Shown here in pieces: positions 5,613 to 48,061 of a DNA stretch of 64,000 nt. The DNA is from an uncultured virus (IMG/VR IMGVR_UViG_3300035510_000375) (taxonomy: Duplodnaviria; Heunggongvirae; Uroviricota; Caudoviricetes): the IMG/VR virus record IMGVR_UViG_3300035510_000375; one strand, 5' to 3'. The first letter of the stretch is position 1. Each line of letters opens with the position of its first letter. A program made the position numbers and the translations under genes. Under the pieces are notes generated by a model. It was not told the origin of the DNA, did not search any database, and saw only the letters and a list, made by a program, of their open reading frames with translations.

Positions 5613-5636
5613 TTGTCACTCCCTTTATTTTTTATT
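5594..5636. terminator. Bidirectional intrinsic terminator
   Basis: AGGGAGTGAC/GTCACTCCCT hairpin flanked by A and T runs between convergent genes. Confidence 0.85.
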
Positions 5637-7105
5637 TATTTAATATTTTTATATCTATCTGAATTAAGAGTTTCAAGCATCAATTCTCTTCCAGTTTTAC
5701 CTGTCAAGACTTGAGTAAAAATTGAGGGTGAAGCACCAGAAACATAAGATACGCTTGGACCAAGATCAAGGATTGTGTTATTTCGTGCATAGACGTTCCA
5801 ATACACGAGTTTTGGCATCTCTAACCCTACTTCCGCCCATTCTTCTCTGATTCTTTCCATTTCAGTTTTTACTTTTTCATCATCGCTCCAATAACTCATG
5901 CGATCTATTTCCATATCAGAAATAACTACAACAGTATTAAGTCTATCTTCCGGATTAGCTTTTAAACTAGTTTCTTTTAATAATTTAAATACCGCTGTAA
6001 GGTTAGTATTATCACATAAATTTGTTTTATAAATTCTTTGTACTTTGTCTACAAAATCAATACCAGTAGTTTCTATCAATTGTGGTTTTGAAGCAAAGCT
6101 AATATAATGATTTTTAAATGGACCTCCAATTCTTTCAGCACAATATAAGCCTAAGCTAATTGCGATATTTATAGGATACCCATACATACTTCCAGAGGTG
6201 TCAACAACACATATCATCTTACATGGTTCTCCATTGAGATAGTCTTTTTGATTTTCCCAATACTTATTAATCATAGCTCTACCTGTTTCAGATAGTTTTA
6301 ATGAATAAGAACCATAACAATTACAAGCATTAGTAACTTTTGATACTATTTCATAAGGATAAAGAGTATCTGCATTTACTTTTGTATTTTCATCTTTTGC
6401 AAAAGCTTCATATTTCTTAGCGATAATATCACGTCTTACAAAAGCATTTTTATATATTAAACCAGCTTTAGAAGGTATTTTTGAAAAATCTATTTTATCC
6501 CATTCATTAGCTGACATTAATCTTTCAAGTACATTAATTCTTTCACGCAAAAATGATAGCATTTTACGATATTCTTTTGAAGTCATGTGTAAATATTTAC
6601 GCAACTTCCTAGCTGTTTTCTTAGTTTTTGAAGATGAAGTATTTTCAGAGGGGATCCACTTGGCAGCCAAGGAAGGAGTCTTACTCTCTACGTCAATAGC
6701 AAGTTGTATCTTAATAATCTTAAAAACATCTTCTTCAAGAGGTGTATCAACTAAAGCAAATAAATCATCATATCTACCATAATTAGCAATTTGTGCAAGG
6801 TTTCTACGAGCAATATCAGGATAAGTTTTTGCTAACCAATTATAACATACTCTAAAGAAACGTCTTTCACCAGCACCACCTCGGCAATCTCTAATCCAGA
6901 ATAAACACTTTAATGCAAGTACTTCATCCTCTTCAAGCGCATTTTTAAATAAGTTAATACAGTCTTCATCTGTCCTTTGGCGGTAAGCCGCTCCAAAGGC
7001 GAACATATCATAGACTTTTGAGAGTGTACTTTTATGTGCTAAGGCGCCGTTTTCAGTATAAGTAAAATTTGTAGCTTCTTTTAAATTCTGCATTAATGTA
7101 TTCAT
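5636..7105 (-). CDS. DUF2828-family TROVE-like/vWA protein (Ro60-related)
   Basis: TENGA, RDCRGGAGER, SLAAKW, vWA MIDAS DTSGSM, ISDME, WNV motifs. Confidence 0.85.
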   Translation of the reverse strand: MNTLMQNLKEATNFTYTENGALAHKSTLSKVYDMFAFGAAYRQRTDEDCINLFKNALEEDEVLALKCLFWIRDCRGGAGERRFFRVCYNWLAKTYPDIARRNLAQIANYGRYDDLFALVDTPLEEDVFKIIKIQLAIDVESKTPSLAAKWIPSENTSSSKTKKTARKLRKYLHMTSKEYRKMLSFLRERINVLERLMSANEWDKIDFSKIPSKAGLIYKNAFVRRDIIAKKYEAFAKDENTKVNADTLYPYEIVSKVTNACNCYGSYSLKLSETGRAMINKYWENQKDYLNGEPCKMICVVDTSGSMYGYPINIAISLGLYCAERIGGPFKNHYISFASKPQLIETTGIDFVDKVQRIYKTNLCDNTNLTAVFKLLKETSLKANPEDRLNTVVVISDMEIDRMSYWSDDEKVKTEMERIREEWAEVGLEMPKLVYWNVYARNNTILDLGPSVSYVSGASPSIFTQVLTGKTGRELMLETLNSDRYKNIK

Positions 7106-7391: not shown

Positions 7392-7401
7392 TAAGGAAAT
7401 T

Positions 7402-7469
7402 ATCGTGGTAGGATATGAACCTACATCTCTTTTCATCTCTGAAAAGTATGCTACTTACACCACACATAT
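7402..7469 (-). ncRNA. tRNA-like element with GAGA-capped arm in place of an anticodon loop
   Basis: D-arm-like TGGTGTAAGTAGCATA, stem CTTTTCA-GAGA-TGAAAAG, T-arm GTAGG-TTCATAT-CCTAC; imperfect acceptor stem. Confidence 0.45.
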
Positions 7470-7630
7470 AGTTATTTGGAGTCACCGGGTTACAGCCCCA
7501 GAAGATACCTCGATGTCGAGCGGTACTTCTATGACCTCGCATTTTTCTTTGTGGACAAAAAATGTAAAATACCCGACATAGTAAGCGCTAAGTCGTTCGC
7601 ACCCCTGAACGTTGGCGAGGCTCCCAAATG
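7463..7630 (-). ncRNA. About 170-nt rod-like structured RNA candidate
   Basis: Nested pairings ATTTGGGAG..TCGCC/GGTGA-CTCCAAAT, ATGTCGGG/CTCGACAT, CATTTTT/AAAAATG. Confidence 0.45.
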
Positions 7631-7651
7631 ATTCAGCTGACGAGGTTGAAA

Positions 7652-7722
7652 CTGCGGATATAGGTGCTGCCCCTATTCCTAGAGCTTCAAAGGCTCCTGC
7701 GCTACTGTTACGCCAATCCGCA
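7652..7722 (-). tRNA. tRNA-Gln(UUG)
   Basis: Cloverleaf; anticodon arm GGAGC-CT-TTG-AA-GCTCT; atypical T-loop (GGCAGCA). Confidence 0.8.
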
Positions 7723-7804
7723 AAACTAAATTTTTTATTTTTTCTTTTCTTTATCTTATGTATATATTATATCATAAAATTTTTTAAAAATCAATTAATT
7801 TTAA

Positions 7805-8336
7805 TGTACTGCATGGGATTAACCCATGACAACCGGATTTTTCGTCATTTAGAAAGCATCTTTTAACATATAATCCTTTGCAAATTTAATTCCTACTGTC
7901 TGTCCATTTTTTGTAGGTTTAATTCTTAATCTTTGTTCTCTTTTACCACACTCAGAAATTGAAATAATATAACAATCTCCATCATACATAGTTGCAAAAT
8001 AATCTATTTCGTCTTTACTATAACTACAATTAATAGTTCCTTTTGTATTAGTATGACTTGTGCTTGTAGTAAATATAAAATATTCGCCATTTTCTCCCAA
8101 ACGAAAAGTCTTTACTTGAATTTTTAATAGTTTACCATTTATATCAACAATAAAATCATATCTACTATCAGATACTAACGGTTGGCTAACCTGAAAGCCT
8201 AGTTCAAGAAAAGCATTAGCAACTTGCAATTCTGTAATTTTTCCTTGAAAATGAGTACTTAACATTTATACCCCTTCCAAAGATACTTCTGTATGCCAAA
8301 AAAAGTCAGGTGCTCTACCAACTGAGCTAGCGGCAC
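7805..8336 (-). tRNA. Split tRNA-Lys(UUU): 5' half 8301-8336, 3' half 7805-7839, 461-nt insert; 3' half degenerate
   Basis: 5' half GTGCCGCTAGCTCAGTTGGTAGAGCACCTGACTTTT; 3' half AATCCGGTTGTCATGGGTTAATCCCATGCAGTACA has a 5-nt T-loop and two stem mismatches. Confidence 0.75.
7849..8265 (-). CDS. PD-(D/E)XK homing endonuclease (I-Ssp6803I / PDDEXK_5-like) inside split tRNA-Lys
   Basis: GxxxE...YDFIVD...KIQVKT...YSKDEIDYF motifs. Confidence 0.85.
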   Translation of the reverse strand: MLSTHFQGKITELQVANAFLELGFQVSQPLVSDSRYDFIVDINGKLLKIQVKTFRLGENGEYFIFTTSTSHTNTKGTINCSYSKDEIDYFATMYDGDCYIISISECGKREQRLRIKPTKNGQTVGIKFAKDYMLKDAF

Positions 8337-8552
8337 ATATTTCTTCCTTCTTCCCTTAGAGTGCCACTATTTCAGCACTCTAGTCAACTCAAAAGCACCT
8401 TTAGTATCTCCGCAAGCAAACATATAATTTGCAGCAATTTCTACTTGGCACTTTCTTAAATAGTTACATACTTTTGTACATAAATATTTCATATCTTACT
8501 CTCCTTTTTTAAATGTAATAATATTAATTTGTGTGAGAGTTGAATGAAATAA

Positions 8553-8617
8553 AACAAGACAGCCTGTATCTCCTTGAAGCTAGAAATTCATCATATATTT
8601 TGCTGTTACTGTCTTTG
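8553..8617 (-). ncRNA. ACAGCAA stem-closed RNA motif, copy 3
   Basis: AAGACAG-TA-ACAGCAAAA...CTGTCTT-GTT; begins a few nt after the tRNA-Pro 3' end. Confidence 0.65.
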
Positions 8618-8620
8618 TAG

Positions 8621-9200
8621 TCGGAATGGCGAGATTCGAACTCACAACGTCTCGGTCTAGGAAAATCTTAGATTATTCTACTATTCTCCTTTCAATTTGG
8701 AAATTTGATTTTGTAATTCATACACTTCTGCAAGATGAATACCTTGTTTTTGATTATTTGAAGGATACTCATACCTAAGACGAAATGTAGTTTTACCTGC
8801 TATTTCAGAAATAGGAATTAAATATGATTTGCCTTCAAAATAAGTATAAAACATATCAACTTCATCTTCTGAATAAGTTTTTCTAATGGTTGTTTTTGTA
8901 TTTGTTGTAGATGTTCTTGTAGAAATTTCAAATGCAACTTTTTCTTTTATAGTGTCTTTTGACCAACTCGCAGTTTTACATTGAATTCTATACAATTTAT
9001 TATCAATATCAACTACAACATCATATCTTGCACAATTCCCATAAGGAATAGAACAATGATAACCTAAATCAATAAATGTTTTTATACATTCAAGTTCAGT
9101 TATCATACCTTTGCTTAATGTATTATCCATATTTTATTTTCATAGAATAAAAATCTCTTTTCCCAAGCCGAGTGGACTAGCCAAATTGTCCTACATTCCA
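8621..9200 (-). tRNA. Split tRNA-Pro(UGG): 5' half 9163-9200, 3' half 8621-8657, 505-nt insert
   Basis: Joined halves give an intact cloverleaf: TGGAATG/CATTCCG acceptor, CTCGG-CT-TGG-GA-CCGAG, GTGAG-TTCGAAT-CTCGC. Confidence 0.85.
8681..9130 (-). CDS. PD-(D/E)XK homing endonuclease (PDDEXK_5-like) inside split tRNA-Pro
   Basis: KGMITE...YDVVVD...RIQCKT...YSEDEVDMF; paralog of 7849-8265. Confidence 0.85.
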   Translation of the reverse strand: MDNTLSKGMITELECIKTFIDLGYHCSIPYGNCARYDVVVDIDNKLYRIQCKTASWSKDTIKEKVAFEISTRTSTTNTKTTIRKTYSEDEVDMFYTYFEGKSYLIPISEIAGKTTFRLRYEYPSNNQKQGIHLAEVYELQNQISKLKGE

Positions 9201-9251
9201 AAGGCGGGAACCCCGACTAAAAACTCTGAGCCAAAGCCCCCGCAATATAAT

Positions 9252-9313
9252 AACAAGATAGTATTTTTACATAGCCTTCTGTAAATGATAAAGTATTGCT
9301 GTAACTATCTTTA
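9252..9313 (-). ncRNA. ACAGCAA stem-closed RNA motif, copy 4
   Basis: AAGATAGT-T-ACAGCAAT...ACTATCTT-GTT. Confidence 0.65.
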
Positions 9314-9327
9314 TAAAATTATTTTTT

Positions 9328-9452
9328 ATAGGTAACCTTCGCGAAACCTATTGGCTAGACTGATAACTTATATAGTCTCGCATATCTCTTGCGCTTAACT
9401 ATTCCCTCTCAGTCCGCACTACCGTTTGAATGAGATATTTGCAACGAAGGTT
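9328..9452 (-). ncRNA. About 125-nt multi-stem RNA candidate downstream of tRNA-Leu
   Basis: AACCTTCG/CGAAGGTT closing stem, ATATCTC/GAGATAT, AGACT/AGTCT, plus ATAGGT/ACCTAT possible pseudoknot. Confidence 0.45.
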
Positions 9453-9457
9453 TTAAA

Positions 9458-9874
9458 TGCGGGAGGTGGGATTCGAACCCACACGACCGAGGTCCTGGGA
9501 TTTTCTTACTACTCTATGTTACCATAGCCACTTAAAAGTGTTGTAGTCTGGACTATGTCTTCTCCATATCATTAAGACTTAGGAGGATGGTGTATTTCAT
9601 AATAATTTTAAGATTTATTAAAATTAATTTATATTTCATAGATGGAATAATATATGGTTCAATCATGGAGAAAATTTCATTGCTTCTTTTTCCATCCTAA
9701 AATTATTATTAGTCTCTACACATTTATCAAATTAAAAATAATTTGAATTTAGCTCGGCGTTCTCCTAGCTCTTCGCCGAATTAGCCATCATTCACACTAA
9801 AAGTTTCCTAGTAGGTGCTCTACTTACGTTGCTAGGATAAAAGTCCCATGCGGCTGCCTTTACGCCACTCCCGC
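9458..9874 (-). tRNA. tRNA-Leu(UAA) with group I intron (exons 9841-9874 and 9458-9504)
   Basis: Spliced anticodon arm TGGGA-CT-T^AA-AA-TCCCA, long variable arm, GGTTCGAATCC. Confidence 0.9.
9505..9840 (-). mobile_element. Group I intron in the tRNA-Leu anticodon with endonuclease remnant
   Basis: Follows exon U, ends in G; core-like AATTCGGCGAA, TAGAGACTA, ACATAGTCC; internal fragment translating as IEPYIIPSMKYKL. Confidence 0.88.
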
Positions 9875-10167
9875 TTAAAAAAGACTTTTCCATAATAACA
9901 TAAAGTCATAAAAAGTTATTATGAGGTTCGCTATCTACTGCTAGCGCTACGCTCTCTTCAACAGTACAGTTCCGGGTTATCTTTAAGTCCTTTGGCGACC
10001 ATGTGACGGGGACTCTGTCAATGCCATCTCAAAAACCTTCCCACAACATTTCAATATCGAATATCATTTTCTTTACCTGAACGTCGCTTTCTTTTACCTC
10101 TTGGAGTAGAGAACAGGTTCATCTTTTACTTCATTACCTGCGTTTGAAAGTGCTCTTGTCGAGCAAA

Positions 10168-10235
10168 AACCTAATGCTGGAATTGAACCAACGACTTCAG
10201 AGTTTCTGACATATTCCCACTATACTAATTAGGTT
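10168..10235 (-). ncRNA. tRNA-like element with 3-nt anticodon loop (pseudo-tRNA or mimic)
   Basis: AACCTAAT/ATTAGGTT acceptor, TCAGA-AAC-TCTGA arm, GTTGG-TTCAATT-CCAGC T-arm. Confidence 0.55.
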
Positions 10236-10389
10236 GATAGACTATTGTGCGTTCTCCGGTCTATCGGCGATCCAGCTAATTTTTATATTGTAAACTATTT
10301 ATATAAATAGAATTAACTCTTTTTTCCTTATTTCTTTATCTTATGTATATATTATAACATAAAATTTATTAAAAATCAAAAATATTTTA

Positions 10390-10800
10390 AGACTGTGCTG
10401 TTGAATTTTACACCATTTTTAGCCTGTCATAAAGAGGAAAAAATTGGTTTTGTTTTCGGTAAAGGCACAAAACCTAAGCCTCTATGAAAAAGCTCCCCTA
10501 CGCATCTACAAGTGCGGATACCCGCATCTCTTACTCATAATTAAATAAGTATGCTATACTTACACCAACCTGTTCTACGGAACGGGAGAAAAAGACATAC
10601 CCCAATTGTCTACACTACTTACTTTATTTTAAGTGGCTAAGCTTTTTGATCTAGGGATACCACTCAAGTTCCATAATTTGGCAAGGGAACCTTCTAAATG
10701 ATGCCAGTATTCAGTGATACCTCACAAAGGGTTTTACTCTTCCAGCCCAATCAAAGTCACTTATCTATCTTTATACAGCACGTAAGCCGCTGTTGCTTAA
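10390..10800 (-). ncRNA. Large (about 400 nt) ORF-free structured RNA candidate
   Basis: End pairing GTGCTGT/ACAGCAC, internal stems (AGTGG/CCACT, GGTTTTGT/ACAAAACC), embedded tRNA-like domain at 10512-10570. Confidence 0.45.
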
Positions 10801-10855
10801 CTTATAAGTTATTTAAGCCAAAAGCAATAATGATATTTCTATCAGTATTTGCTAG

Positions 10856-10926
10856 TTGCGGGGACGGGACTTGAACCCGTGTCTCTGGGGTATGAACCCA
10901 GCAAGGAGCCGCTCCTCTACCCCGCA
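10856..10926 (-). tRNA. tRNA-Met(CAU), initiator-like
   Basis: CTGGG-TT-CAT-AC-CCCAG with three G-C pairs at the base of the anticodon stem. Confidence 0.85.
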
Positions 10927-11012
10927 ATATTTGCTCCCGTTTTGTTTTAATGATCTTTCCTTGGGATAATCCACAAGCACCAAAGGCAGTTTTATAGGGA
11001 GCTCTGCACATG

Positions 11013-11087
11013 TCACCCGACTGGTGCACGATACCAGATTACAGCATTGAAAGCGCTGTGTCCTAGTCCAACTTAGACGACCGGGCG
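11013..11087 (-). tRNA. tRNA-Glu(UUC)
   Basis: CAGCG-CT-TTC-AA-TGCTG; atypical T-loop. Confidence 0.75.
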
Positions 11088-11222
11088 AAGGTGCGGTTTA
11101 AGGTTAACCGCAAACCAAACATTTGAGAGAGGTTACAATATTTAAAACAAAAACTTTTTTATTTCTTTATCTTATGTATATATTATAACATAAAATTTTT
11201 AAAAAATCAATTAATTTTTAAA

Positions 11223-11295
11223 AGTTGATAATGAGATTCGAACTCATGATGCTGATTTTGCGGACCAGCCCCTTAGACCACTTGGATATATCAAC
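11223..11295 (-). tRNA. tRNA-Cys(GCA)
   Basis: CTGGT-CC-GCA-AA-ATCAG (C33 instead of U33), U73 discriminator, TTCGAAT loop. Confidence 0.8.
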
Positions 11296-11305
11296 ATATT
11301 TCCAA

Positions 11306-11395
11306 CGAAGAGGGAGGGATTTAAACCCTCACCCCATATAAATAACCTACACCCTTAGTAGGGGCGCCTCTTCAGCCATACTTGAGTACCGCTCC
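11306..11395 (-). pseudogene. Degenerate tRNA-Ser (anticodon ACT, probably derived from GCT)
   Basis: GGAGCGGTACTCAAGT..GAAGAGG Ser-type body with mismatched acceptor and variable arms and a TTTAAAT T-loop. Confidence 0.65.
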
Positions 11396-11459
11396 ATTTT
11401 TAAATGTTTTATTTCTTTACTTTATATATATTATAACATAAAATTTTATAAAAATCAAA

Positions 11460-19790: not shown

Positions 19791-20390
19791 ATGACGAATT
19801 ATTTAACTAATGAATTATATTTATATTTAGTATTATACTCAGATACAATAAGTAAAATTAATTTCTCTGATATTGCAAAGAAAACGGGTAAAACAAGACA
19901 ATCAATATCAAAATATTATAAAATATTATTGGAAGAAAATATGATTACGCAAGAAGATAATAATATTATTGTTGATAATAGATATGAATTAAATAAAGCA
20001 GAAATTAATTTTATACGAGAAACTTTTAATATATATCCTGCTACTTATATAGCATATATTATTTACAAAGAAAGATACCCTTTTGAAACTGATGAAAGTA
20101 TTAGTAGAAGGCTAGGGGTTAGTAGGAAGAAAATTGATTTATATTTAGCAGATATGAAACAAAATGGAAAAATGAAAAATTATATTTATGCTATTATTCA
20201 AAATCAAAAAATAATGTATATTGGTTCTACTTGTTGTTTAAATATGAGGATGGAGCAACATTGTAGGAAAAGACAATTCTTAAAGGAAAAGGATTTTATT
20301 ATATTGGAAGAATGTAATAAAAATAATCGTTTTGAAAGAGAAGCTTATTATAGAAGAAAATATCTTCCTGAGTGGAATCAAATTATATAG
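19791..20390 (+). CDS. HTH plus GIY-YIG domain protein
   Basis: SDIAKKTGKTRQSISK HTH; C-terminal YIY...YIGST...R..QH...E...P.WN. Confidence 0.72.
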   Translation: MTNYLTNELYLYLVLYSDTISKINFSDIAKKTGKTRQSISKYYKILLEENMITQEDNNIIVDNRYELNKAEINFIRETFNIYPATYIAYIIYKERYPFETDESISRRLGVSRKKIDLYLADMKQNGKMKNYIYAIIQNQKIMYIGSTCCLNMRMEQHCRKRQFLKEKDFIILEECNKNNRFEREAYYRRKYLPEWNQII

Positions 20391-35239: not shown

Positions 35240-38200
35240 GTTTACAAAAATTGTTAGAGTTATCTTCTTCACGAACTCAAAAACAAGGACTTTCTGAGGA
35301 ACGTTTATTGGCACAAGTAGATAATCTAAGAGATATGATTGCTTTTTTTAGAGAATATCCAGATTTATTTGTAGATTATTTTAAGGGTGAGGATAGTACA
35401 TTCCATTTTTATTTTTATCAGAGAATTTTTTTAAGAATTGCTATGAGGCATAGATATGTCTATGCAACATTTCCGAGAGCGTAAAGTTTGCGCCAATAAA
35501 AATTATAAAATTTTTGACAAACTTCTTTAATTGCGGGAACCCTAATTTCATATTTATGTGAAAGGTGAGGGAAATAAAGATGATTATGGGAATCCGCAGC
35601 CAAGTATTTAAATTAAAGGAGTTAAAAATGAAAACACAAATTAAAAATTATAAAAAATATAATATTTATGATAATGGAGATGTAGAAAATATAGAAACTA
35701 ATAAAATTTTAAAAGGCTCTATATCTGAAAATGGTTATAAATATTATAGGCTATCTAAAGATGGCTTGAAAAAAATGTTTTATGCACATAAACTAGTAGC
35801 AGAAGCATTTATTCCTAATCCAAATAATCTGCCAGTTGTGAATCATAAAGATGGTAATAAATTAAATAATAATATAAATAATCTTGAATGGGTTAGCTAT
35901 TCTGAAAATGTTATTCATGCTTATAATAATAATTTAATTTCCAAGAATAGGAAGACCGAATATTATGATAAAGACCTTCCTAACGAAGAATGGAAAACTT
36001 TTGAAGATTATAATAATTATTTAATTTCTAATAAAGGTAGGATAAAAAATGTTATTACTAATAGACTTTTAAAACCTTCAGTTGCGAGTGGATATTATAA
36101 AGTTAGATTAAGTAAGAATGGAAAAGTTAAAGATTTTCTTATTCATAAATTAGTTTATTGTCTTTTTAATGATGAAGAATATTTAATTGATAAAAATTAT
36201 GTTATTGATCATATTGATGCTAATAAATTAAATAATAATATTAATAATTTAAGAAAAATTACTAATAGTGAAAATGCTATTGCAGCACTTTATGAACAAC
36301 AAGTTAATAATAGTGCAAAAAGAGTCGGTCAATATTCTTTAGATGATGAGTTATTAAATATTTTTCCTTCTACAAGGGAAGCAGCTAAACAATTAAAATT
36401 AGATAGTAGTACAATTTCTAAAGTATGTAGAGGGCAAAATAAAACTCATGGTGGTTTTATTTTTAAGTATATTTAATTTAAATAAAGGTTCAACGACTAT
36501 TCTGAAATAGCCTCCTCGGAATATAAATAGAGGCAATAGAAGTAGGGCCGAAGTTAATGCGGCGGGTGAAAATCCCTTAAATCGAAATAGGAAGATTTTT
36601 ATATTTATATAAAAATGTGATATAGTCTATTCTATATAGAAATATATAGCAGTTCATAAGAGAACGTATGTAAAGTTACGATTTACATAGAATATAAAGA
36701 TTCAAAATCATTTTTATCTATGATGATTTTAATGATACGATGTATTTTATATCCCAATTCGCATTTATTCGTGACTACAGGTGGTAAGGAACAAGCAGCG
36801 AGCATCACCATCGCAAAAATAGAAGAAATATGTAGGCTTCTTCCATGCCTAGCTAACGAGTTAGATTTAGATAGAGGTAAAACGACTAAAGCTAAGGATA
36901 ATGTAAAATATGTATTTAAAAATGGTTCTACTATTGATATTCTTGCGGCAAGGGAGAGTTCGAGAGGACAACGTAGAACGGGTAGAAAAAATTTTACTAT
37001 GTTGTCATCATTGTGGACAATTTTAAATAATTCTTCTTTACTAATTTTCTAATATATTAGAAAAAAGGAGTATAAAATGGTAGGATATATTTATCATATT
37101 AAAAATATTAAAACTAACAAGGAATATATTGGTCAAACTTTAGATGTAGAATGGAGAATATATAAACATTTTCAGGCGCTAAAGAATGGAAAACATCATT
37201 CAGATAAGCTTCAGAGGTCTTATAATAAGCATGGAAGAGAAGCTTTTCAAATTTCATATCAAGAAATAGAAATTGATAGTTATGATGAGTTATTATTAGA
37301 AGAAGTAAAAGAGATAGCTAAATATAATAGTTATGAAAATGGTTATAATGAAACTAGGGGAGGAGAAGGTCACCCTACTCTATTTGATTACGAAACTTCT
37401 ATTTTAATTTATCAATTAGGACAAAGATACGAAGGAATAAAACATAAATTAGCTGATTATTTTAATTGTGATAGAACAAGTATTACAGCTGTTTTTAGAA
37501 AAGATTATTTAGCAAAAGAAGAATATGATGAGCAAGCATTACAAGAATTAATTAAAAAAATTAATATTACAGATAAAAATTTAAAAGGAAATTATAAAAA
37601 TAACTGGGATAGATCTTTAACTCAAGAACAAGTGCTAAATATTCTTTCGACAATAGAAATTAAAAATTTTTCTCAATCTGCTTGTGCAAAAGCTTATGGA
37701 GTTACTAAAGATATAGTTCAAGGAATCTGTTCTGGAAAGCATTATAAAAAAGATTATGAAATTTTTCAATCATTATCAAAACAAGAAAAAGAATCTTTTG
37801 CTGAAAATATGTGTAATACTACAAACGTAATTAAGTTGCATTATGAAGGACAGAGAGGCCCTGTAAAAAATCCTTTAACTCAAGAACAAATTAATTATAT
37901 TTTAGATAATAAAGGGAAAATTACCCAAACTAAAATTGCTCAAAATTTAAAAATTTCTAAAGATAGGGTTTCTAATGTAATTAATAGAAAAAGTTATTTA
38001 GATATGATTTGGGTGTATGAAAAAGAACATTCTTCCAATTAAACATTAAACTGCCCGTTTAAAATCGCGGAATTAAGCTGGAACCCTGAGATGGGAATCA
38101 GAACCGAAGGCTATAGGAACTATAGTCAGGGGCAACGCATAGTGGGTGAAAAGATATAATCCCACCACGAGGCCGCGACATTTAATATAAATGAAAAGAT

Positions 38201-40570
38201 ATGCTGAACTTATAAAAATTAAATTATAAGAATTAAAAGATAAAAAACTTTTAAGATAACATTAATGGGTTTAATGGAAGAGTGTGTTCTGATTGACCAG
38301 ACTGCACTTAACGAGATCATAATCCCCACAACCAACGTTGACAGGCTTCTTTCGGATGGAAGTAGACATGAAGAAGAAGTTGTTAACAAGAGTCAAATAT
38401 ACATTAACTTTTTTGGGCAAAACGTTACAAAAATATGTGCATAATTTTTAATATACAATAGTATATAAAAAAGGATAAGGATAATTATGTATTATATATA
38501 TAAAATAGAAAATTTAGTAAATCATAAAAAATATATAGGGCTAACTAATAATATTGCTAGAAGAAGAGCTAGACATTTTACTGATTTAAGAGGTAATAGG
38601 CATGATAATAGCTTTTTACAAAAAGAATTTAATATTTATGGAGAAGAGAATTTTTGTTTTAATATTGAATTTCAAGGTGATATTACAAGTCAAGAAATTG
38701 GAGAAAAAGAAAAAGAATATATTAAAAAATATGACAGTTATAGAAATGGTTATAATCAAAATGAAGGAGGAAATTTTGGTCCTTCAAATGGCGGAAGTCA
38801 TTTAACACAGTCAGATATTTTTAATATTTTATCTGCAATAGAATTTTGTTCTAGACCAGGACAAATACTCTCAGATATCTATGAGGTTTCCAAAACTACA
38901 ATTAGTAGAATAAAAAAAGGTGAAAATCATTGTCAATATAAAGAAGAATATGACTCTCTTCCTTTAGAAGAACGTAAAGCTATATATAAAATTTTTTGTG
39001 ATAGCACTAATTTTTATGAGCAAAAAGTAAAGAAAACTATTATACAGTCTAAAAGAAAATTAAATGAATTTCAAGTGCATTTAATTTTATGTAATTTTGA
39101 ATTTAAAATTTTTACCAGAAAAAAGATGGCAGAAATAGTTAACGTTAAAAGTACTTATACTTTAGATTGTATAAAAAATGGAATTAGTTATAAAGATTAT
39201 GCTTTAACATATTCTCAGTTAACGAATGAACAAAAAGAACAATTAGTGTCGCTATTGAGTAATCAATAGTTGTAACCCCTTGAATTGCTGGAAAGCCCTA
39301 ACGTATAGTCGAGGGTAATCAGCAGCTAAGCCTTAATCAAAGGAAAGTTCAACGACTAGTCTAAAGACGTACATTCAAGTGAATGGAAGCGGGGGGCTCC
39401 TAATAAAATAGGATGAAGATATAGTCTACTCTTATAAGAAATTATAAGCAGTTCATAAGAGAACGCACATAGCTTAACGAACTATGTGGAATAAAAGGAA
39501 CTACAGCAGGGTACAGAAATACCTTTGCCTATGCTAAATTAGTAGAATTATTGATTCAATCTGTAGTAGAACCGGATTCTGCTATGATTATGGGTGGAAC
39601 TTATGAGACACCTGTATGCGAAGGTTTATTAAGTGAAGATTTCGTAGAACAGCTGCGCTCACAAGGAACATTTAATGAAGATTCCTTTGACCGAGAGTAT
39701 AGAAGCCTTTGGTCTGGAGATGTGGAGAATAGTTTCTTCTCATCAGAAAAATTTGATAAACATAGAGTTTTATTACAGCCGGAGTATGAATATAGTGGCC
39801 GCAGTAATAAAAATGCTTACTATGTTATTGGCGTCGATGTAGGAAGAACTGAATGTACAACAGAAGCTAGCATATTTAAAGTTACACCTCAACCGCAAGG
39901 AACTGCAACAAAAAGCTTAGTATGTATTTATTCCTATGAAGCTGAACATTTTGAAGCGCAAGCTATAAATTTAAAAAGATTATTTTATAAATATAAGGCG
40001 CGAGCCCTTGCTATTGATGCGAATGGTCTAGGTGTAGGATTAGTAGATTTCTTAACTACATCACAAGAAGACCCGGAAACTGGCGAATACTTTCCACCTT
40101 TTGGTGTAGAGGGTGGAACTTTTGAAGAAGCTACAGAACAATATAAAAAGGTTCGAGGTAATAACGTTGAAGAAAATGCTTTATTTTTAATAAAAGGAAA
40201 TGCACCAATAAATACGGAGGCCTATTCTTATACGCAAACTCAAATGGCTAGTGGAAAACTTAAATTTTTAATAGATGAAGCTGCCGCAAAAACTAAATTA
40301 ATGAGTACCAAGATGGGCCAAAATATGTCATTAGAGCAACGAAATGATTATTTGATGCCTTTTGTACAAACATCTATTCTTAAAGAACAGATGATGAATT
40401 TGGTTGAAAGTAATGAAGGAACCAATATTATCTTAAAACAGGCTTCAAGAGGAATAAAGAAAGATAAATTTTCTTCCTTCGTTTATGGTTTATTATATAT
40501 AAAGAGAGAAGAAGACCGCACTAAAAAAAGAAAAAAGAGAAATATTGAAGATTTCTTATTCTTTTCTTAA
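35236..40570 (+). CDS. terL: Terminase large subunit, 4 exons (35236-35482, 36700-36983, 38268-38404, 39499-40570; 579 aa spliced)
   Basis: Splicing restores FPRAY-SKSF (Walker A), RGQRRTG-GLMEE (Walker B) and QIYI-TTAG; nuclease GVDVGR and KDKFS; exons sum to 1740 nt. Confidence 0.93.
35483..36699 (+). mobile_element. Group I intron 1 of terL
   Basis: Follows exon U, ends in G; AATTGCGGGAA, AATCCGCAGCCAAG, GTTCAACGACTA, GATATAGTCT. Confidence 0.92.
35628..36476 (+). CDS. Intron-encoded HNH endonuclease (two HNH units, NUMOD1-like tail)
   Basis: VNHKDGNKLNN..NLEW and IDHIDANKLNN..NL; FPSTREAAK; AAGGAG RBS. Confidence 0.9.
   Translation: MKTQIKNYKKYNIYDNGDVENIETNKILKGSISENGYKYYRLSKDGLKKMFYAHKLVAEAFIPNPNNLPVVNHKDGNKLNNNINNLEWVSYSENVIHAYNNNLISKNRKTEYYDKDLPNEEWKTFEDYNNYLISNKGRIKNVITNRLLKPSVASGYYKVRLSKNGKVKDFLIHKLVYCLFNDEEYLIDKNYVIDHIDANKLNNNINNLRKITNSENAIAALYEQQVNNSAKRVGQYSLDDELLNIFPSTREAAKQLKLDSSTISKVCRGQNKTHGGFIFKYI
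36984..38267 (+). mobile_element. Group I intron 2 of terL
   Basis: U/G boundaries; IGS CTGCCCGTT (38051) pairs with AACGGGTAG; core lies downstream of the ORF. Confidence 0.9.
37077..38042 (+). CDS. Intron-encoded GIY-YIG endonuclease
   Basis: GYIY...YIGQT...R...H...NGYNETRGG. Confidence 0.9.
   Translation: MVGYIYHIKNIKTNKEYIGQTLDVEWRIYKHFQALKNGKHHSDKLQRSYNKHGREAFQISYQEIEIDSYDELLLEEVKEIAKYNSYENGYNETRGGEGHPTLFDYETSILIYQLGQRYEGIKHKLADYFNCDRTSITAVFRKDYLAKEEYDEQALQELIKKINITDKNLKGNYKNNWDRSLTQEQVLNILSTIEIKNFSQSACAKAYGVTKDIVQGICSGKHYKKDYEIFQSLSKQEKESFAENMCNTTNVIKLHYEGQRGPVKNPLTQEQINYILDNKGKITQTKIAQNLKISKDRVSNVINRKSYLDMIWVYEKEHSSN
38405..39498 (+). mobile_element. Group I intron 3 of terL
   Basis: U/G boundaries; GAATTGCTGGAA, AATCAGCAGCTAAG, GTTCAACGACTA, GATATAGTCT. 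Confidence 0.92.
38487..39269 (+). CDS. Intron-encoded GIY-YIG endonuclease
   Basis: YIYKI...YIGLT...R...NGYNQNEGG. Confidence 0.9.
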   Translation: MYYIYKIENLVNHKKYIGLTNNIARRRARHFTDLRGNRHDNSFLQKEFNIYGEENFCFNIEFQGDITSQEIGEKEKEYIKKYDSYRNGYNQNEGGNFGPSNGGSHLTQSDIFNILSAIEFCSRPGQILSDIYEVSKTTISRIKKGENHCQYKEEYDSLPLEERKAIYKIFCDSTNFYEQKVKKTIIQSKRKLNEFQVHLILCNFEFKIFTRKKMAEIVNVKSTYTLDCIKNGISYKDYALTYSQLTNEQKEQLVSLLSNQ

Positions 40571-46202: not shown

Positions 46203-48061
46203 ATGGCAGATACTAATAAGACACCTTTCTCTCAAGTTTATGACAGTTTTTTTACTAAAATCACAGATGATATGTATATGGAATTAACCGAGCTTGATAC
46301 TTTTAGAATGTTAGAGGATTTATTAATTGCTTCTATACAATATTTTGAATTTCCTCGTATTGATATTACTTCTTATGAATTAAGTAGTATATCTGGAGAG
46401 GAAGAATATTGTGGGATTGAAAGTAACGATGTTCTAGTTAAGGCTATTATCTATGATGGCGGTTATTTTAATAATACATTAACTGCAGAGGAAATTAATA
46501 TACTATCTACCTATATGGTTGTTGAATGGATGGGGCAACAATTAGCCAGTGTAGAAAATACAAGAATGAAATATAGCGGATCAAGTCTGGTCCTCTTTAT
46601 TAGAAATATTAAAGAAAATTTTAGGAAAAACTGGAACCCTGAAATGGGAATCAGAGCGGAAGTCTTAGTTTAAAAGCTTTGACACGCGCAGAGCATAGGA
46701 GAATTAAACTTATGAGTAAAATAATAGTTCCACAAGAACTACAAGATAAAATAGTAGATTTGTATGTAAATAAAGGTTATGGTAGAATGAAAATTAAGAA
46801 GGAATTACATCTTGATTTTGGAGATACTATAATAAAAAGAATTTTACAAGAAAATAATATTCATATTAGAAATTTTAATGAAGCTAAAGTTGGTTGTTAT
46901 AAAACAGAAGTTCCTCAAGAAATTCAAAAACAAATTATTGAATTATATCAAAAAGGTTATGGATTGGATAAGATTGTTAAAGAGTTATCTTTACCTTTTA
47001 GTTTTGATAAAGTTCGTTCAATTTTACAAGACAATGGAATCCATATTCGGAATCTTCAAGAAGCTTCTCTTGTAAAACAAATGCCGGAATTAAGAAAGTA
47101 TACTGTTAATGATGATTATGTTTTAGAAAGTCATAATGGGGCTTGGCTATTAGGTTTTATTGCAGCAGATGGATATTTACCTATTACAAAAGGTGCTAAA
47201 AACAGAATAACTATAACCTTGCAAGAACAAGATGAAGAAATATTACAAAGGATAGCTAAAGAACTTGAATATAATGGACCTATATACCATTTTGAAAATC
47301 AAGGTTTTCCCGCTGTTTCTTTATCATTTTCATCACAAAAACTTCGACAGCAAATAGAAAATTATGGAATTGGAAATAATAAAACTTTTAAATTATCTCA
47401 TATTCCCAATCTTCCTAATGAATATAAATTAGATTTTATTAGAGGCTTTTTTGATGGAGATGGAAGTTTATATGAGCCAAAAGGAAAAAAGATTAATATA
47501 AACTTTACTTGTGCTAGTGAAACTTTTTTAAAAGATATTACAAAATTTTTCTTTGAAGAATATGGAATTAATGAACCAAAAATTCATTCTCAAGAAAGAG
47601 TGCATATAATCTATACAATTAATTATTATGTAAAAAATAGTTTAACTATTTGTAATGCATTTTATAATAATGATTATTTATCTTTAGCTAGAAAAAAAGA
47701 ACATTTTTTTACTATCAAAAAGAAATATAATTTACCATAAGATATAAACTCCCACGAGCCTAAATACCTCAAAAAGGTAAAAAGATATGCCGAACTTATA
47801 CGAATAACAAGTATAAGAATTGAAAGATAAAAAGCTTTCAAGGTAACAAATTTTGCAGATTTCAAATTCACATCTCAAGCGAATCATATGTCCAAGATAC
47901 TGACGGTACAAAAAGACTATGAAAGAAAAGGTTTTCATTTGCAAAGATTATATAAACGTAGAGCACTTAATGAAGATGGTAGAATGCGTTCTACTTTTGA
48001 TTTAATAATGGATGCTTATCCTTCAGGAAGGACTTATAAACACCATGCTTATAAAACATAA
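46203..48061 (+). CDS. Putative head-tail adaptor, 2 exons (46203-46581, 47856-48061; 194 aa)
   Basis: Splicing restores KYSG-SDFKFTSQANH in frame. Confidence 0.8.
46582..47855 (+). mobile_element. Group I intron in neck gene
   Basis: P1 GGATC/GGTCC, AACTGGAACCC, AATCAGAGCGGAAG, AAGATATGCCG; terminal G. Confidence 0.88.
46712..47740 (+). CDS. Intron-encoded double-motif LAGLIDADG endonuclease with duplicated N-terminal HTH
   Basis: WLLGFIAADG and FIRGFFDGDG; VPQE.Q..I..LY repeated twice. Confidence 0.9.
   Translation: MSKIIVPQELQDKIVDLYVNKGYGRMKIKKELHLDFGDTIIKRILQENNIHIRNFNEAKVGCYKTEVPQEIQKQIIELYQKGYGLDKIVKELSLPFSFDKVRSILQDNGIHIRNLQEASLVKQMPELRKYTVNDDYVLESHNGAWLLGFIAADGYLPITKGAKNRITITLQEQDEEILQRIAKELEYNGPIYHFENQGFPAVSLSFSSQKLRQQIENYGIGNNKTFKLSHIPNLPNEYKLDFIRGFFDGDGSLYEPKGKKININFTCASETFLKDITKFFFEEYGINEPKIHSQERVHIIYTINYYVKNSLTICNAFYNNDYLSLARKKEHFFTIKKKYNLP

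Follow-up and report, generated by a model that had tools for sequence, protein, structure and literature searches.

The 64,000-nucleotide window analyzed here, which is the whole of the stretch taken from the uncultured virus record IMGVR_UViG_3300035510_000375 (Caudoviricetes), derives from a gut phage. It has a low GC content and encodes a tail protein of the tape-measure type, a cell-wall hydrolase and a reverse transcriptase, in addition to many homing endonucleases, and a tRNA array runs along its minus strand at approximately positions 7400-11400. Two genes of this array, tRNA-Pro(UGG) and tRNA-Lys(UUU), are each split next to the anticodon by an insert that contains a homing endonuclease open reading frame (ORF) with minimal non-coding ends. 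A sequence-only reading of this DNA had proposed that such inserts are candidates for a new class of intron whose removal does not depend on a ribozyme.

The tRNA-Pro(UGG) gene spans positions 8620-9200 (this and all other features of the two split genes are on the minus strand) and is called by ARAGORN, with a 505-nt insert, when introns are allowed. Neither this gene nor the split tRNA-Lys(UUU) is detected in the default mode of the program. The 5' exon, which comprises tRNA positions 1-36, lies at 9163..9200, and the 3' exon, which begins at position 37, lies at 8620..8657. The junction is placed according to the rule followed by the family and by the uninterrupted alleles of a relative, as described below. 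The insert (8658..9162) consists of 32 nt, an ORF of 149 amino acids (8681..9130) and 23 nt.

The minimum free energy fold of the Pro precursor forms a cloverleaf whose anticodon stem is extended by a 9-bp helix, also present in the centroid fold, and it contains a second helix of 9 bp. The first of these, the terminal helix, has a 5' strand composed of U33, anticodon bases 34-36 and insert bases +1 to +5 (9158..9166), and a 3' strand composed of insert bases -8 to -1 and G37 (8657..8665). Both strands are also supported by covariation in the family. The second helix joins part of the 5' untranslated stretch (9142..9150) to a segment that extends to the last base of the ORF stop codon (8673..8681). 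The precursor fold has a z-score of -2.54, and two of 100 shuffled sequences are as stable. By appearance, the Pro copy looks like a competent member of the family and has every one of its features.

The tRNA-Lys(UUU) gene (7805-8336) contains a 461-nt insert (7840..8300) made up of 35 nt, an ORF of 138 amino acids (7849..8265) and 9 nt. Its 5' exon, again positions 1-36, was read from the sequence (8301..8336). The 3' half (7805..7839) is degenerate, and inspection by eye shows that the anticodon stem contains one mismatch, that the acceptor stem contains one mismatch along with a wobble pair, and that the T loop is unusual. ARAGORN makes no call for this gene with introns allowed, the predicted fold of the precursor forms no cloverleaf, and the terminal helix is irregular and requires a bulge. 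Because of its degenerate 3' half and irregular helix, the Lys copy is most likely a dying relic whose nuclease gene is still intact. The run of U residues that covers the Lys anticodon and the start of the insert is one T shorter, at position 8298, in three independent RNA-library assemblies.

A junction between tRNA positions 36 and 37 is compatible with both genes, and a shared G also permits 37/38 for Pro alone. In these respects the anatomy first described from the letters alone holds up well. Each gene is split by a single PD-(D/E)XK ORF, the flanks have the lengths originally given, and the insert ends are complementary and extend the anticodon stem, a helix that the Pro fold recovers and that is irregular in Lys. 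The two halves of the Pro gene are intact, as had been reported, and the Lys 3' half is decaying.

Judged by fold and by Pfam, both window nucleases are clear members of the I-Ssp6803I family. They match PDDEXK_5 (PF11645, cut-off 26.1 bits) with scores of 82.6 bits for Pro (E = 3.4e-23) and 80.1 bits for Lys (E = 2e-22), and a profile built from ten family members matches I-Ssp6803I itself (2OST) at E = 2.1e-16. A structure model of the Pro protein (predicted local distance difference test score 88.2) finds 2ost_A as its top Foldseek match (E = 1.7e-10, template modeling score 0.75), in agreement with the family named in the earlier reading. The next-best structures are archaeal Hjc resolvases. 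Residues E12, D37, D41, Q50 and K52 are invariant across ten sequences, with catalytic roles assumed from the family. For the Lys ORF, 16 relatives are present among viral contigs, and those that are 44-70% identical lie inside tRNA genes of other phages.

The two inserts belong to a widespread group. An alignment-based scan of viral contigs found 128 relatives of the ORFs, from which 79 loci were kept. Most relatives reside inside tRNA arrays on contigs of 50-400 kb, and the design recurs in many large phages. Of 73 distinct ORF cores (some of which represent one place counted twice at a different offset), 51 have an ARAGORN tRNA call that encloses the ORF, and the tRNA is always on the same strand as the ORF. 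Nine of the ARAGORN rows were dropped by eye as mis-joins (L008 Ile, L010 Ile, L016 Thr, L094 Met, L036 Asp, L047 Lys, L075 Asn, L040 Ile and L035 Leu). Excision of the insert at 36/37 yields a full-length tRNA in all 41 curated distinct genes. These genes represent 11 anticodons: Asn(GUU) with 11 members, Lys(UUU) with ten, Thr(UGU) with seven, Gln(UUG) with three, Met(CAU), Asp(GUC) and Gly(UCC) with two each, and Pro(UGG), Lys(CUU), Val(UAC) and Ser(GCU) with one each. The Ser(GCU) member is a 90-nt tRNA with a long arm, and its anticodon reads Ser only with a 36/37 junction.

The flanks of the 22 cores that have no ARAGORN call were also read. They include further split tRNAs built in the same way (Ile-GAU, Ala-UGC, Pro-UGG, Lys-UUU and Gly-UCC, along with a Ser-GCU that is partial), two loci truncated where the contig ends, a few ORFs with no nearby tRNA, an insert at another site (L093) and, on a brief look, four longer inserts of 650-850 nt. 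The decayed window Lys gene and L091, as well as L041 and L089 (described below), also belong to these 22 cores.

The position of the junction is fixed directly by tRNA-Thr alleles with and without the insert. A 35-nt tRNA-Thr 5' exon occurs in identical form in nine viral contigs. Five of these carry an uninterrupted gene, and in the other four the insert follows directly after U36, with no base duplicated or lost at the insertion point. The prediction that PDDEXK_5 ORFs in phage tRNA genes would share a fixed site is thus confirmed. These presence/absence alleles are the pattern expected of a homing element, seen here for a relative rather than for the genes of the window. An exact-match scan for an uninterrupted allele of the window tRNA-Pro returned only a near-identical 12-kb contig, and the nearest record (G001) has no tRNA array.

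Other arrangements of tRNAs and nucleases occur among the loci. In L008 (positions 2458-2612), and also in L010, a tRNA-Pro(UGG)-like gene contains in its anticodon loop a complete tRNA-Phe(GAA), which overlaps the last anticodon bases. In three loci from Blastocatellia genome bins (L114-L116), the nuclease is free-standing and located approximately 85 nt downstream of an intact tRNA-Arg(CCU) rather than inside it.

The terminal helix seen in the Pro fold recurs across the family. Helix counts were taken from the 41 curated genes and compared with a null in which pairing partners were shuffled 2000 times among genes. U33 pairs with base 37 in 41/41 genes, a trivial result because nearly all tRNAs have these two bases. 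What is not trivial is that pairing between the anticodon and the final three bases of the insert is seen in 122 of 123 cells. Shuffles produce 74.0 +/- 4.5 such pairs with a maximum of 91, none of the 2000 reaches the observed count, and slid registers give 56-72. For example, the insert ends in AAA where the anticodon is UUU, in AAG for CUU, in ACA for UGU, in AUG for CAU and in CAA for UUG.

Covariation continues in pairs that lie wholly inside the insert. Of the 287 cells for the seven pairs from +1/-4 to +7/-10, 228 are paired, compared to 137.4 +/- 7.6 when partners are shuffled among all genes and 190.3 +/- 5.8 when they are shuffled among genes with the same anticodon (0/2000 shuffles reach the observed count in either case). 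Most of these positions show five or six pair types, and +4/-7 is mismatched in 15 of the 41 genes. The uncurated set of 51 rows, which includes the nine doubtful rows and the window Lys gene, gives 439/561 against a shuffled value of 288 +/- 10.7. Beyond +7, many members appear by eye to have a short conserved internal loop followed by a further covarying stem. The suggestion that homologs would have covarying terminal helices is therefore borne out, and the helices also match the anticodon of each tRNA. Among the short-intron ARAGORN calls in these loci, there is no convincing ORF-less mini-intron that follows the helix rule.

In relatives of the Asn(GUU) type (for example, L014, L039, L049, L050, L068 and L096) and in L025, the 5' strand of the internal loop, as read by eye, has CUGA and the 3' strand has CUGAUG. 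These words resemble box D and box C, and they could form tandem G-A pairs. A true K-turn in these loops was considered by eye, as was mimicry of RNase P or RNase Z substrates, and the support for each was insufficient.

Both junctions reside inside a continuous duplex and are three pairs apart, such that each product of cutting would keep a 3-nt 3' overhang. On the tRNA side this overhang is the anticodon. Read from sequence, this geometry would be the signature of a two-fold symmetric double-strand cut and not of a motif of the bulge-helix-bulge (BHB) type or of the P1/P10 helices of group I introns. Causes acting at the level of DNA were considered for the match to the anticodon, including target-site duplication, priming by cut ends during homing, and protection of the junction from re-cleavage. 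They were rejected because each predicts either a direct repeat or no constraint, and not the inverted complement that is seen. The constraint therefore acts on RNA.

Which kind of RNA element this might be was addressed by Rfam searches of each window insert alone (8610-9215 and 7790-8345), with permissive filters and a reporting threshold of E <= 10. Neither insert has a match to group I (RF00028) or group II introns, or to any other Rfam intron family, at this threshold. No Rfam intron family is found at E <= 1 in 20 related loci, and no group I or group II match is found at E <= 0.1 in 12 further loci from genome bins. A positive control is provided by the adjacent tRNA-Leu(UAA) gene (9458-9874, minus strand), whose 336-nt group I intron has no ORF and occupies the classical 34/35 site. 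This intron, with recognizable P3, P4, P6 and P7 segments, is detected at 24.5 bits (E = 3.2e-4), below the Rfam gathering score of 50, and the search is therefore able to see a weak phage group I core. The Leu(UAA) intron is undetected when a larger stretch is searched.

An ordinary group I intron could nevertheless be present if the ORF concealed its core or if another element, such as the Leu intron only 260 nt away, provided the core in trans. The accessible part of one report describes I-Ssp6803I itself as residing in a 655-nt group I intron of tRNA-fMet, in which a 150-amino-acid ORF leaves approximately 200 nt for the ribozyme (PMC1995217). Apart from the failure of the searches, two observations make this explanation very improbable for the phage inserts. 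First, third-codon-position identity at conserved residues is flat over 38 aligned ORFs (0.55-0.74, overall 0.64; this range leaves out the first alignment window, which has 28 comparisons only), and thus no conserved RNA block is hidden in the coding sequence. Second, the boundary bases are wrong.

In group I introns a U precedes the 5' splice site and a G is the last base of the intron. In the Pro gene, G36 precedes the 5' site and the last base of the insert is A; in the Lys gene, U36 precedes the site and A is again last. Across the 41 family members, the base preceding the 5' site is U in 32, C in five and G in four, and the last insert base is A in 22, C in 12, G in four and U in three. 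These bases contradict group I. A group II assignment fits no better, given that there is no Rfam group II match that would indicate domain V/VI RNA and that the ORF encodes a PD-(D/E)XK nuclease and not a reverse transcriptase.

BHB introns have two 3-nt bulges separated by a 4-bp helix and a canonical site at 37/38. The phage helix is continuous from 33-37 through +6/-9, its splice sites would lie within paired stretches, and none of the BHB registers tried by eye fit. The site is also different, being 36/37 according to the uninterrupted alleles and the Lys and Ser cases. The initial claims that these inserts contain neither a group I or II core nor a canonical BHB motif agree with all of these results.

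A small RNA motif of another kind in the paired ends might self-cleave or self-splice, with a host enzyme ligating the products. Consistent with such a motif, the helix covaries and sequences beside it appear by eye to be conserved across tRNA types. The candidate internal loops are 5' CAAAC/3' GCAUUG, 5' CUGAC/3' CUGAUG and 5' UAGAC/3' GACUA. However, these motifs differ between subgroups, and the non-coding RNA available to them amounts to only 12-46 nt on the 5' side of the ORF and 2-23 nt on the 3' side. No Rfam ribozyme family is found inside an insert at E <= 1, and the sole weak match, to twister-P1 (34.7 versus 67.2 bits), is outside the insert in L080. We consider a ribozyme of this kind improbable.

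The explanation that we favor, although it might about equally well prove right or wrong, is that these inserts are protein-dependent tRNA introns of bacterial viruses, in which the terminal helix marks two cuts staggered by three pairs. A nuclease ORF with minimal ends and no ribozyme core would sit exactly between tRNA positions 36 and 37. The insert ends would continue the anticodon stem by pairing U33 with A37, the anticodon with the last three insert bases, and the first insert bases with those upstream of the last three. The helix would thereby present splice sites at 36|+1 and -1|37, three pairs apart and with 3' overhangs. A protein endonuclease would cut both sites, and the nick remaining in the anticodon loop would be sealed by an RNA ligase. 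Direct support exists for the anatomy, for the exact site, for the presence/absence alleles, for the covariation of the helix, for the intact exons and for the lack of known ribozymes, and from these features we infer that RNA is cut and joined by such enzymes. Of the new class of spliced intron that had been proposed, the fixed site and the conserved, covarying helix are thus upheld; the step to splicing is the part that goes beyond them.

The identity of the splicing endonuclease invites a more speculative suggestion. The PD-(D/E)XK homing endonuclease encoded by the intron could also be the splicing enzyme, with the RNA helix copying the left half of the DNA homing site such that the anticodon is central. 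I-Ssp6803I presumably cuts DNA with 3-nt 3' overhangs around the anticodon. Cuts in the RNA would then have this 3-nt 3' stagger as well, and the resulting 3'-OH and 5'-phosphate ends would be sealed by an ATP-dependent RNA ligase of the phage or the host. We regard this more specific scheme as unlikely.

The condition of the exons is in keeping with splicing. The 41 spliced tRNAs have 866 stem pairs, of which 820 are Watson-Crick and 46 are G-U, and only 18 stem positions are unpaired. In 204 neighboring tRNAs, 238 stem positions are unpaired, and the stems of the split genes are thus at least as clean. Differences in exon stems between related alleles are two-sided in 90 cases, one-sided in three and pair-breaking in none (311 compared pairs, 16/17 allele pairs). 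An argument that these two-sided changes prove selection on the split genes was withdrawn because of two further comparisons. Related split genes have unrelated flanking sequence over 550 nt in each direction (30 comparisons, with two matches of 18-21 nt), and divergence of introns is only weakly correlated with that of exons (Spearman 0.25, 0.22 and 0.59). Intact exons may instead derive from homing into different live recipient genes.

These comparisons count against splicing and are in line with a different account, in which the inserts are never removed. The nuclease gene would home into the pseudo-palindromic anticodon stem-loop DNA of live tRNA genes and kill them, and the exons would be intact as the insertions are recent. 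The helix, which together with the anticodon stem has approximately 20 pairs, would be a double-stranded element for processing (of the RNase III type) or stability, through which the nuclease mRNA is released or shielded within the array transcript. A continuous helix of this length needs the loop and the anticodon to be paired, and so a match to the anticodon is predicted in this case as well. Alleles with and without the insert have identical exons, as this account would have it, and decayed copies exist, including the window Lys gene and L091.

Two loci illustrate the point. In L041 (approximately positions 650-1160), nothing but a Thr(UGU)-type anticodon stem and loop and the terminal helix surrounds the nuclease ORF. 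This remnant is located between two intact tRNAs and has no acceptor, D or T arm of its own, which suggests that the helix can matter to the insert alone and persist without a tRNA. In L089, ARAGORN calls a gene with a 609-nt insert that holds a whole spare tRNA(CAU) in addition to the nuclease ORF, which implies that the insertion is harmful. However, this is a single relative (n = 1), and its insert ends, inspected by eye, do not pair with the loop of the split gene, that is, there is no terminal helix.

Other features of the family are harder to reconcile with inserts that destroy their tRNA genes. Intact split tRNAs are very frequent, both among the ORF cores (51/73) and in the curated set (41/41), and their stems are as well preserved as noted above. 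In every case, removal at the junction leaves an anticodon loop of the standard 7 nt. In addition, RNase III cuts with a 2-nt stagger, and cleavage by such an enzyme would not require so exact a register. We judge unspliced homing inserts, the main alternative to splicing, to be possible, if somewhat doubtful.

Evidence from RNA was sought in seven metatranscriptome runs that contain parts of the stretch, and contigs from four of these were examined. Contigs of three gut metatranscriptome runs cover positions 7600-9399 in the unspliced form only, and they include no Pro or Lys exon junction. This is what would be expected of inserts that stay in place, but the same contigs also lack a spliced form of the Leu(UAA) group I control, and the cover may represent DNA or precursor RNA. 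The absence of a Pro or Lys junction consequently says little. The only joint inside the region in RNA contigs is a 115-nt skip within the Leu intron in one run, which represents an intron variant and not splicing.

Several additional points weigh against a protein-spliced intron. We know of no protein-only tRNA splicing in bacteria or phages. The structures nearest to the nuclease are DNA enzymes, namely I-Ssp6803I and then Hjc, and not the archaeal splicing endonuclease EndA. The RNA ligase RtcB, which had been put forward as a protein to look for, is present in none of five related phage genomes that are 94-100% complete, and no ligase is found among 54 window ORFs scanned at E <= 0.001. 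The search for PF09511 (T4 Rnl1 type) has 0/5 genomes with a match, but this family matched no control genome either, and so the search says nothing.

The same inquiry has a positive side. A putative ATP-dependent RNA ligase ORF of 394-488 amino acids occurs in all four near-complete genomes of insert-bearing phages. Its weak matches to RNA_ligase PF09414 are at threshold (29.9 and 27.0 bits, cut-off 27). Examples are located in L097 (844-2310, minus strand), where the PF09414 match at cut-off is accompanied by a PHA02142 OB domain, and in L098 (31-1215, plus strand), where the match is also at cut-off.

Each known system that resembles the phage inserts differs from them in some respect. The I-Ssp6803I intron of Synechocystis tRNA-fMet, which we take to be inserted after anticodon base 36, has the same nuclease family (2OST, PF11645) and fold, and its ORF likewise resides in a tRNA anticodon loop. 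In the phage family there are only 2-46 nt on each side of the ORF and no detectable core, and the ends pair with the anticodon rather than forming P1/P10. The DNA target of I-Ssp6803I is described, in the portion of the source available, as a 23-bp site at a pseudo-palindromic anticodon stem-loop (PMC3384342).

Archaeal BHB introns are removed by EndA and RtcB. They are likewise ribozyme-less and protein-dependent, a dependence that is only proposed for the phage inserts, and they may carry a homing endonuclease and pair with the anticodon region. The archaeal splicing endonuclease also belongs to the PD-(D/E)XK fold superfamily (PMC3424549). In contrast, the phage site is 36/37, the continuous helix lacks the two 3-nt bulges, the elements reside in bacterial viruses, no EndA-like protein is identified and RtcB is absent from the five related genomes. 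By analogy, the phage insert would work most like an archaeal protein-spliced intron with a homing endonuclease, yet it fails to show the site and BHB structure that define such introns.

The nearest published concept that was found, as far as the accessible text of that study goes, is SOS splicing in animal mRNAs. In this process, DNA transposons are removed without a spliceosome or ribozyme, and removal is triggered by pairing of inverted ends, which are the terminal repeats of the transposon. The available text names RTCB, AKAP17A and CAAP1 as participants and assigns ligation to RTCB (PMC12779559). The phage helix differs in being tailored to the anticodon of each tRNA, and its junction is exact.

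Lak megaphage tRNAs carry 'enigmatic introns' of unknown type in the anticodon region, with alleles that have or lack the insert, and some of these introns encode a tRNA (10.1101/356790, in the part of the text accessible). They resemble the tRNA-in-tRNA arrangement of L008, and the accessible text mentions no endonuclease ORF and no rule for a terminal helix. A catalogue of bacterial tRNA introns requires a match to group I by design, according to its available portion (10.1101/2020.01.27.920355), and a 2014 review stated that every phage intron known at that time lay in a protein gene, although phages have many tRNA genes (PMC3984707). No description of a core-less nuclease insert family was found in the literature searched. 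The inserts apparently constitute a large, undescribed family of intervening sequences in phage tRNA genes.

Additional elements of the window and of the related arrays are recorded here. A tRNA-like gene at 10168-10234 (minus strand, 49.3 bits) has normal acceptor, D and T arms, and its anticodon arm is a 5-bp stem closed by three bases only, which leaves no anticodon. A 489-amino-acid protein with DUF2828 and DUF7788/vWA domains (5636-7105, minus strand) is encoded next to a weak tRNA-like element (7400-7468, minus strand, 27.3 bits), and the two may form a module like that of Ro and Y RNA. Weak matches to YrlA, a Y RNA-like RNA, occur in tRNA arrays of related loci (34.4 bits at positions 248-359 of L113, and in L016 and L040). 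An AT-rich, promoter-like element of approximately 50 nt (TTGATTTTTAA followed by a TATAAT-like sequence) is repeated in the tRNA array at 7746-7794 and approximately 10330-10385. Contigs from RNA libraries have far higher depth at this element and branch there into other sequences. The other genes of homing-endonuclease type in the window (three GIY-YIG, one HNH/NUMOD and one LAGLIDADG), together with the reverse transcriptase, are located at 19791-20387, 35565-36473, 37077-38039, 38487-39266, 46679-47737 and 1848-2936.

At the least, the existence of this family matters for annotation, since standard tRNA finders miss such split genes. Its broader meaning depends on the fate of the insert RNA. 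If the inserts are not spliced, homing endonucleases persist in tRNA genes without a splicing element, and the RNA helix would serve their own expression. In the current view, only self-splicing introns, of groups I and II, occur in bacteria and the viruses that infect them, and protein-spliced tRNA introns define archaea and eukaryotes. If the phage inserts are spliced, they would be the first protein-dependent tRNA introns outside of these two domains, and they would bear on the origin of BHB introns and of the PD-(D/E)XK-fold endonuclease that removes them. If the nuclease were itself the splicing enzyme, bacterial viruses would splice tRNA with a system that is self-contained and uses protein alone. 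Such a system would offer a present-day counterpart to the route by which the archaeal splicing endonuclease is proposed to have descended from DNA nucleases of the PD-(D/E)XK type.

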